Assembly: GCF_003334305.1 (NCBI RefSeq)
Contig: NZ_QOWS01000089.1
Length of the DNA stretch: 221 bases
Reading direction: 5' to 3' (one strand)
DNA from: Escherichia coli
Lineage (GTDB): Bacteria; Pseudomonadota; Gammaproteobacteria; Enterobacterales; Enterobacteriaceae
A model generated the notes under the pieces. It was not told where the DNA came from. It worked only from the letters and a program-made list of their open reading frames with translations, and did not search any database. Positions 1-221 of this stretch are shown here, one piece after another (the first letter of the stretch is position 1; the number at the start of each line of letters is the position of its first letter). A program made the translations under genes and the position numbers.

Positions 1-181
1 ATTGCTTCAAGAAATCGAGATGTGTTTCCCCGAAATCCTCTATATCTTCCCAACTTTCTGCACCAGAAATAACGGCAAAAATAGTCAATAGTAGGATGCC
101 TGACAATTTATGCTCTACTTTCCAGGCTTATCTGTAATCGGGAATAATAGAAATATGTTCCATCAATTTTTTAAGTTCCAT
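1..181 (-). pseudogene. ISAs1-family transposase (H-repeat-associated-protein-like), 5' portion; frame interrupted by in-frame TAA at 130-128; 3' end lies beyond position 1
   Basis: Minus-strand ATG at 181-179 with an AAGGTG SD 5 nt upstream. Translation is [17 protein letters not shown], then TAA (130-128), then the same frame is open for 42 codons to the window edge ([42 protein letters not shown]). Both parts match, from memory, the N-terminus of E. coli H-rpt/ISAs1 transposases ([33 protein letters not shown]...[19 protein letters not shown]), where the stop position is Gln. No alignment was run. Confidence 0.6.
128..181 (-). CDS. Literal 17-codon ORF ([17 protein letters not shown]), interpreted as the truncated N-terminal fragment of the transposase rather than an independent gene
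   Basis: ATG 181-179, SD AAGGTG at 192-187, stop TAA at 130-128. A second in-frame ATG lies at 163-161. Any product would be a non-functional transposase fragment. Confidence 0.3.
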   Translation of the reverse strand: [17 protein letters not shown]

Positions 182-186
182 TTGTT

Positions 187-192
187 CACCTT
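187..192 (-). promoter_or_regulatory. Shine-Dalgarno sequence (AAGGTG) for the transposase start codon
   Basis: Plus-strand CACCTT at 187-192 is AAGGTG on the minus strand; 5-nt spacer (AACAA) to the ATG at 181-179. Confidence 0.6.
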
Positions 193-200
193 ATTTATGT

Positions 201-206
201 AAGGAG
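201..206 (+). promoter_or_regulatory. Shine-Dalgarno sequence (AAGGAG) for a plus-strand start at 216
   Basis: Perfect AAGGAG core, 9-nt spacer (TATTTGATC), then ATG at 216-218. It may instead be a chance match inside the IS terminal region. Confidence 0.4.
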
Positions 207-215
207 TATTTGATC

Positions 216-221
216 ATGTAT
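216..221 (+). CDS. Possible 5' end of an unidentified plus-strand ORF (only ATG TAT visible), divergent from the transposase
   Basis: ATG at 216-218 with a strong SD at optimal spacing. Two codons are visible, so coding potential and product cannot be assessed. Confidence 0.3.

Follow-up and report, generated by a model that had tools for sequence, protein, structure and literature searches.

Positions 179 to 221 of a 221-nt stretch of Escherichia coli DNA (contig NZ_QOWS01000089.1; the whole stretch is hereafter called the window) most probably contain the transposase start and the proximal leader of ybfL, an inactivated, full-length insertion sequence (IS) element of the ISEc1/H-rpt type, in which two back-to-back Shine-Dalgarno (SD) motifs are the arms of a hairpin that masks the SD of the transposase. 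We put the probability of this reading at roughly 75%. An initial annotation had described the same motifs as divergent translation starts and had proposed two explanations: either the plus-strand ATG was fortuitous and lay inside the terminal region of the IS, or the element was 5′-truncated or unusually compact and directly abutted a host gene. The features themselves had been placed correctly. On the minus strand, the SD AAGGTG (192..187) precedes the ATG (181..179) with a 5-nt spacer, and on the plus strand, AAGGAG (201-206) precedes an ATG (216-218) with a 9-nt spacer; the stretch between the divergent starts (193-200) reads ATTTATGT. Together, these two SD-like motifs make up a single imperfect inverted repeat, of which each is one arm.

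Leader hairpin in ybfL and other K-12 copies

Along the transposase strand, the region is TGATCAAATA-CUCCUUA-CAUAAA-UAAGGUG-AACAA-AUG. Folding brings the 5′ arm, CUCCUUA (200..206, minus strand), opposite the 3′ arm, UAAGGUG (187..193, minus strand), across a 6-nt loop, CAUAAA (194..199, minus strand). The 5′ arm is an anti-SD segment that covaries with its partner in relatives, and its plus-strand complement is the AAGGAG at 201-206. The 3′ arm holds the transposase SD (192..187) and, in the clade alignment, reads UAAGGAG in intact copies. In the mRNA, CUCCUUA (206..200) would pair with UAAGG(A/U)G (193..187), the transposase's own SD. Both the minimum free energy fold and the centroid fold of the whole ybfL leader contain the hairpin. 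An inverted-repeat search with a 6-nt seed returned only a TGATCA palindrome, and the imperfect SD/anti-SD repeat was seen through folding. In an Rfam scan of the leader from K-12 and eight relatives, no family was found over the leader; apart from a chance microRNA match (E = 0.99), the scan hit only a group II intron fragment in L007, which is unrelated. That domain fragment (RF02005, 65.8 bits; L007 1-110) lies just upstream of a Vibrio navarrensis ISAs1 copy with an ltrA reverse transcriptase gene downstream of it, which suggests nested mobile elements unrelated to the leader hairpin.

Stem stability differs among the H-rpt copies of E. coli K-12. The intact yhhI has a perfect 7-bp stem, CUCCUUA/UAAGGAG, of −8.0 kcal/mol (ydcC has the same arms); ybfD has a stem with one U.G pair (−5.1 kcal/mol); and ybfL and ybfQ have a U-U mismatch arising from the SD change AAGGAG to AAGGTG (−3.5 kcal/mol). 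This change, at window position 188 (A on the plus strand, T in sense), is common to ybfL and ybfQ, as is a spacer one A shorter, in comparison with yhhI, ydcC, ybfD, and two relatives from other genera. It weakens both the SD and the hairpin (from −8.0 to −3.5 kcal/mol).

Conservation and covariation of the hairpin across the ISAs1 family

The family sample consisted of 8 diverged plasmid-borne ISAs1 members and 80 loci from one-genome-per-species contigs, with a 9-protein alignment as the query. Removal of near-duplicates left 62 leaders, which were folded over −45 to +3 and compared with dinucleotide shuffles of the upstream part. These 62 nonredundant leaders folded at −9.2 kcal/mol versus −6.5 kcal/mol for the shuffles, and 19 leaders beat 95% of their own shuffles (P ≤ 0.05), where ~3 were expected. 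The control set of 42 ordinary K-12 genes folded at −6.6 kcal/mol.

A MAFFT alignment of the leaders registers the 5′ arm and not the 3′ arm. Because loop lengths vary, this alignment is unfit for RNAalifold or pair counting, and covariation was assessed with an alignment-free swap test and with anchored pairs. In almost all of the 33 nonredundant sequences with an ungapped TGATC motif (described below), the hairpin begins at module position 10 to 12. These sequences contain 30 distinct arm pairs (among them CUCCC/GGGAG, CUCUC/GAGAG, CUGUC/GACAG, CUGCUU/AAGCAG, CUUCC/GGAAG, and UUAUCUU/AAGAUAA) and loops of 4 to 10 nt. When arms were swapped among the 33 sequences, pairing with the arms of other elements reached −5.10 kcal/mol, compared to −7.83 kcal/mol for each element's own arms, and none of 20,000 permutations was as good (0/20,000). 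Base pairs at the anchored positions change on both sides of the stem: position 14 is C-G in 22 sequences, G-C in 4, and U-A in 3; position 15 is C-G in 16, U-A in 8, and A-U in 2; and position 16 is C-G in 17 and U-A in 8. Together, these results support the covariation of the hairpin arms across relatives as real. An SD-like core lies inside the 3′ arm, about 5 to 10 nt before the AUG, in 25 of the 26 members that have one.

Several observations count against an SD-masking hairpin. Taken as a whole, the ybfL leader shows no unusual degree of structure (z = 0.74), and its hairpin is weak. Across the family, SD nucleotides were paired at 6.7 versus 6.0 in shuffles, which keep the CU-rich composition, and the permutation test ignores the phylogenetic relatedness of the elements. 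In addition, summed hairpin energies are alike on both strands (−233.6 sense and −237.6 antisense); because the strand sums are equal, fold energy alone cannot assign the strand, nor can it assign the structure to RNA or DNA. Three other explanations of the inverted repeat were considered.

First, the pairing could be a functionless by-product of a purine-rich SD lying beside a pyrimidine-rich stretch that is conserved for some other role, such as a promoter discriminator. Pairing with the SD is fairly frequent in shuffled CU-rich leaders too, and the stems are short, with that of ybfL at only −3.5 kcal/mol. However, swapped arms pair worse than own arms in every permutation, and matched arms are kept even where the 3′ arm is not SD-like (CUGUC/GACAG, CUGCUU/AAGCAG, and UUAUCUU/AAGAUAA). 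Distant members without the TGATC module also have stronger SD-occluding stems (ISPa60, −25.7 kcal/mol; L072, −20.1 kcal/mol), and we consider a by-product very unlikely.

Second, the inverted repeat could be a double-stranded DNA site for a protein (transposase, repressor, or host factor) over the promoter region rather than an RNA hairpin. A DNA site would be consistent with equal fold energies on both strands and with the position of the repeat, which abuts a conserved promoter-like, GATC-containing motif. It is unlikely, given that the arm sequences vary and covary across 30 arm pairs, a pattern typical of nucleic acid structure and unlike a sequence-specific protein site, and given that, in 25 of 26 members, the SD located 4 to 9 nt ahead of the AUG falls on the 3′ arm. 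Furthermore, several stems have G.U pairs that can form only in sense RNA; ybfD, L032, and Vnav are examples, and in these the sense strand folds better by 4 to 6 kcal/mol.

Third, the structure could act on the antisense strand, for example as an antisense-RNA stem directed against the transposase start, like RNA-OUT (IS10) or art200 (IS200). The summed folds are slightly more stable on this strand than in sense, and a weak sigma-70-like site, TTTCCA-18-AATAAT (window 119-148, plus strand), points across the transposase start. This promoter-like site scores only 9/12, though, and such sites occur at the shuffle expectation (4 found, 4.3 expected). It also lies in coding sequence, where conservation is uninformative, and no Rfam family matches, all of which makes an antisense role quite improbable.

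An SD-masking hairpin in the transposase mRNA is the reading that we prefer, and its distribution seems to extend past the members with a TGATC motif. Several members without the motif have stronger SD-burying stems, ISPa60 and L072 being examples. Loci L016, L018, L025, and L061 (Halomonas and Billgrantia), L014 and L064 (Endozoicomonas), L009 (ISPa60), L072, L079, and L080 have no TGATC motif, yet in each the segment immediately before the start codon is buried in a stable stem, with energies of −9 to −26 kcal/mol. SD occlusion seems to be more widespread in the ISAs1 family than the GATC-containing motif.

Identity, ends, and inactivation of the element

The window is a 100% match to E. coli K-12 and equals NC_000913.3 complement(736785..737005). 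This region belongs to the RhsC locus, downstream of rhsC-ybfB-ybfO-ybfC, where three H-rpt (ISAs1-family) copies, ybfQ, ybfL, and ybfD, are arranged in tandem. By sequence identity, the window is the 5′ end of the pseudogene ybfL (H-rptC2, an ISEc1-type ISAs1-family element). Codons 1 to 60 of the transposase open reading frame (ORF) occupy 1..181 (minus strand), with the start codon ATG at 181..179 opening an ISAs1-family transposase N terminus; the K-12 match is described as "ISAs1 family transposase, internal stop." After the stop, the ybfL translation scores 414.7 bits against NF033564, the curated ISAs1 transposase model (cutoff, 70), and YhhI scores 412.4 bits against the same model. 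The ybfL product and the intact YhhI of H-rptB are identical at 370 of 379 residues, and a plasmid-borne copy carries the annotation "ISAs1-like element ISEc1 family transposase." An in-frame TAA (128..130, minus strand) takes the place of codon 18, which is Gln (CAA) in intact copies (Q18→*). RefSeq labels ybfL a pseudogene with an "internal stop," and, as judged from translation and comparison with YhhI, the TAA at codon 18 is the lesion that makes it one.

H-rptC2 is 1290 bp long and is laid out as a 143-nt leader, a 1137-nt ORF, and 10 nt past the stop codon. It is 95.6% identical end to end to the intact, 1291-bp H-rptB, which extends from CAGGGAAAGATCA to TAATCTTGCCCTG (L002 6235-7525) and has its stop codon within the right repeat. 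The initial annotation had called for an ISAs1-type inverted repeat to be sought beyond position 221, together with a match at the far end of the element, and both are present. The left inverted repeat of ybfL, CAGGGAAAGATCA, lies at window-equivalent positions 312-324, and its tip (324) corresponds to NC_000913.3 736682, 103 bp past the window; the right inverted repeat overlaps the transposase stop codon. As terminal repeats, CAGGGAAAGATCACGTAA (L001 4324) pairs with CAGGGAAAGATTACGAAA (L001 3035) at 16 of 18 positions, and the CAGGG repeat tips are common to ISAs1, ISPa60, and other family members.

Window positions 182..221 (minus strand) are the proximal 40 of the 143 untranslated nucleotides of the H-rptC2 leader, which continues past the window to the left repeat CAGGGAAAGATCACGTAA. 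The same leader, ~143 nt long, recurs before the ATG of ybfQ, yhhI, and ydcC and of three relatives from other genera. In other ISAs1-family members, a CAGGG-type repeat lies 74 to 170 nt upstream of the ATG, so the length of the ybfL leader is normal for the family. The left neighbor of ybfL is no host gene but the coding sequence of a truncated ybfQ copy, another H-rpt fragment. On the other side, the right repeat joins the ybfD leader directly, and this leader is missing its first ~25 nt. No target-site duplication is visible around ybfL, where both junctions are with other H-rpt copies.

Compared to H-rptB (yhhI), ybfL has in common the transposase, termini of the form CAGGGAAAGAT..., a leader of 143 to 144 nt, and a stop codon inside the right repeat. 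It differs from H-rptB by the TAA at codon 18, the SD change AAGGAG to AAGGTG, a spacer one A shorter, and junctions to other H-rpt copies rather than to host DNA. A 5′-truncated or compact IS abutting a host gene, as the initial annotation had offered as one option, is contradicted by the full length of 1290 bp, the presence of both repeats, and the H-rpt fragment next door. Nor does the arrangement of the two starts reveal truncation or add to the evidence of decay. Decay is visible here in two features only, the known TAA and a single substitution, present in ybfQ as well, that weakens the SD and the hairpin.

The element, H-rpt/ISEc1 of the Rhs loci, has long been known, and both its pseudogene status and its tandem arrangement are already annotated. 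Zhao et al. (1993) reportedly described both a 1291-bp H-rpt at RhsB and, at RhsC, a tandem array of three H-rpt copies. A metagenome-assembled contig (L013 470-500) has a complete H-rpt left repeat preceded by 31 nt of another H-rpt leader, which ends in ...CTTTTTGTAC. In K-12, the ybfL right repeat (L001 3035-3010) runs straight into CTTTTTGTAC..., which is the ybfD leader from about nucleotide 25. Both junctions resemble those expected if one H-rpt had inserted into another's leader at the same site, and such insertions may be the origin of the tandem arrays.

The coding part of the window contains a terminator-like hairpin with a T-rich run after it (TCGGGGAAACACATCTCGA + TTTCTTGAAG) at window positions 15-33 on the minus strand (L001 4033..4015), at about codons 50 to 59 of the transposase. 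An identical sequence is found in ybfQ (L001 4413..4395). The scan counted two such sites versus 0.3 expected, although both represent a single sequence present twice.

Plus-strand start

No plus-strand gene starts in the window. The frame that opens at the ATG at 216-218 (216..221 within the window, plus strand) is translated as MYKL and then stops, with the stop codon at window-equivalent positions 228-230. Early termination of this frame together with an ISAs1-type terminal repeat past position 221 is the combination that, according to the initial annotation, would show the plus-strand start to be spurious, and both are seen here. The equivalent frames of other ISEc1-clade copies (ydcC and L013) are also four codons long (MCKQ and MYTQ), and elsewhere in the family the plus-strand ATG is absent or its frame is unrelated. 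The ATG arises opposite the CAT of aCATGATC; in most of the family, cTGTGATC (CTGTGATC) stands in place of CATGATC, which leaves no ATG on the opposite strand. The plus-strand AAGGAG, in turn, is forced, since it is the complement of the anti-SD hairpin arm. With AAGGAG fixed in this way, an ATG would be expected 5 to 10 nt downstream in ~10% of cases at the base composition of the window. Consistent with this, 7 of 48 family members contain some antisense pair of an SD-like motif and ATG, and the ORF that each pair opens is short and unrelated. The proposal that the plus-strand ATG is fortuitous and lies inside the IS terminal region therefore holds for its location and for the ATG, which is specific to the ISEc1 clade, but not for AAGGAG, the complement of a conserved, covarying arm.

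A real divergent pair, in which the plus-strand SD and ATG would start a host gene abutting a truncated or compact IS, is extremely improbable. Its appeal is that strong SD and ATG pairs are usually genuine in K-12: AGGAG followed by ATG after 5 to 10 nt occurs nine times on both strands of 50 kb, and eight of these nine occurrences are annotated gene starts. Judged on a naive background, the pair therefore exceeds what chance would give, and flagging it was reasonable. Against a divergent gene, the frame has just four codons, the next 103 bp are IS leader up to the inverted repeat, and this leader is repeated upstream of ybfQ, yhhI, and ydcC. Moreover, the element is full length, its neighbor is another H-rpt fragment, and the ATG is not conserved outside the closest relatives. 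The annotation ambiguity is thus settled in favor of a full-length IS copy without a divergent gene. More generally, a strong SD and ATG can be the mirror-image artifact of a hairpin that masks a ribosome-binding site, which calls for caution in gene calling and in searches for small ORFs near IS ends.

Candidate promoter and a possible control module

A motif conserved in the family alignment, TGATCAAATACT (205..216, minus strand), is a candidate transposase promoter element. The motif contains TGATC (216..212), with a Dam site, GATC, at 215..212, and two −10-like hexamers, TCAAAT (213..208) and AATACT (210..205). Across 33 relatives, in which it takes the form (A/G)TGATC(W)(W)AT(R)CT, positions T2, G3, A4, T5, C6, A9, and T10 never vary, and C12 and T13 show at least 90% conservation. 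Family-wide, the consensus reads TTTGAC-N14-TGTGATCtTATACTC. In 27 of 32 members, an upstream TTGA[CAT]N element is separated from TGATC by exactly 14 nt, giving TTGACN, 17 bp, and TCWWAT, and a TG one base upstream of the TCWWAT hexamer provides the layout of an extended −10. In TATRCT, the other −10 candidate, the A and the final T are retained. When ATCAA... was compared by eye with WATCAANNNNTTR, it did not fit an IHF site.

The assignment as a promoter has its own weaknesses. Neither −10 candidate is clean, with TCWWAT lacking the A at −11 and TATRCT lying 20 bp from TTGAC. The ISEc1 clade, window included, is without the TTGAC element, and a consensus promoter scan of the ybfL leader on the transposase strand found no promoter. 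Among the published Cappable-seq entries listed, none was near the ybf or yhhI coordinates, and the SMRT-Cappable-seq tables do not list these genes.

One GATC (212-215) is part of the TGATCA palindrome, which lies 30 nt ahead of the transposase ATG, and another is in the left repeat CAGGGAAAGATCA; there is none in the right repeat (…AAGATTA). In many members, a second GATC directly follows TTTGAC. Members from Halomonas, Endozoicomonas, cyanobacteria, and deltaproteobacteria have no TGATC motif. The orders whose members carry the motif have Dam; IS phylogeny is a confounder of this pattern. Beside ydcC at RhsE lies another, distinct ISAs1-family pseudogene, yncI (L093 5400-5620; NC_000913.3 about 1530400-1530620), with a left repeat of its own, CAGGGCAAGATCATG, and a GTGATCAAAAT motif ~60 nt before a GTG start. 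Since yncI carries GTGATCAAAAT, the TGATC motif recurs in a separate lineage within one genome.

Hairpin and motif together suggest how transposase synthesis might be controlled. By analogy with IS200, the hairpin would hide the transposase ribosome-binding site and keep translation low. The TGATC(W)(W)AT(R)CT motif (216..205) may be the element's own promoter. The 5′ arm occupies the 6 to 7 nt after the −10-like hexamer, a geometry that allows a start inside or after the arm, and under either −10 reading the predicted +1 would fall at the 3′ end of the 5′ arm or in the loop. Transcripts initiated by the element would then be without the anti-SD arm and translatable, and read-through transcripts from outside would carry both arms and be silenced, following the logic of IS10 and IS50. 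Dam methylation at the GATC might in addition regulate the transposase promoter.

Tentatively, and at clearly less than even odds, we propose that ISAs1 elements of Dam-positive gammaproteobacteria carry a compact control module consisting of TTGACN, 14 nt, TGATCWWATRCT, an anti-SD arm, a U-rich loop, an SD arm, and AUG, with a Dam-sensitive promoter that fires inside the anti-SD arm. If so, transposase would be made only from element-initiated transcripts, probably just after replication, with host read-through silenced, and the window would hold a decayed, ISEc1-clade version of the module. The locus itself is ordinary, and the family-wide leader module is of modest interest. Little is known of how ISAs1-family elements are controlled, and a covarying, SD-occluding hairpin locked to an invariant GATC motif offers a concrete regulatory model.

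Comparison with known transposase control systems

In the literature on H-rpt, ISAs1, ISEc1, and IS1358, we found no description of a leader structure or promoter. The ISEc1 clade is unlike its compact relatives in that the −35-like TTGAC is missing and the leader is ~60 nt longer. The closest parallels come from IS elements unrelated to the family. In IS200, a stem-loop in the 5′ untranslated region of tnpA contains the SD, inhibits 30S binding, and represses translation (PMC4513863). The SD thus lies within a stem-loop of the transposase leader in both IS200 and the ISAs1 family. In contrast, the IS200 structure is much larger (nucleotides 69 to 138) and acts on the native transcript, whereas the ISAs1 stem is 5 to 8 bp and its effect on translation is predicted. 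The two are unrelated, IS200 being an HUH element and the ISAs1 family DDE.

In IS10 and IS50, only read-through transcripts form the structure that occludes the ribosome-binding site, as the native start lies inside it, and the IS10 pIN promoter is Dam sensitive. The T1 transposase promoter of IS50 is regulated by two GATC sites (PMC4265352). The ISAs1 leader has a layout in common with these elements: a GATC at the promoter (a candidate promoter in ISAs1), followed by an anti-SD segment and the SD. Both IS10 and IS50 are unrelated to the ISAs1 family, in which the start site and the dependence on Dam are predicted. If the prediction is right, the ISAs1 family would have converged on the control used by the unrelated IS10, IS50, and IS200. 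Leader hairpins that mask the ribosome-binding site and Dam-sensitive promoters are well-known control devices of IS elements, and the putative ISAs1 module is a modest new example of them rather than a new principle.

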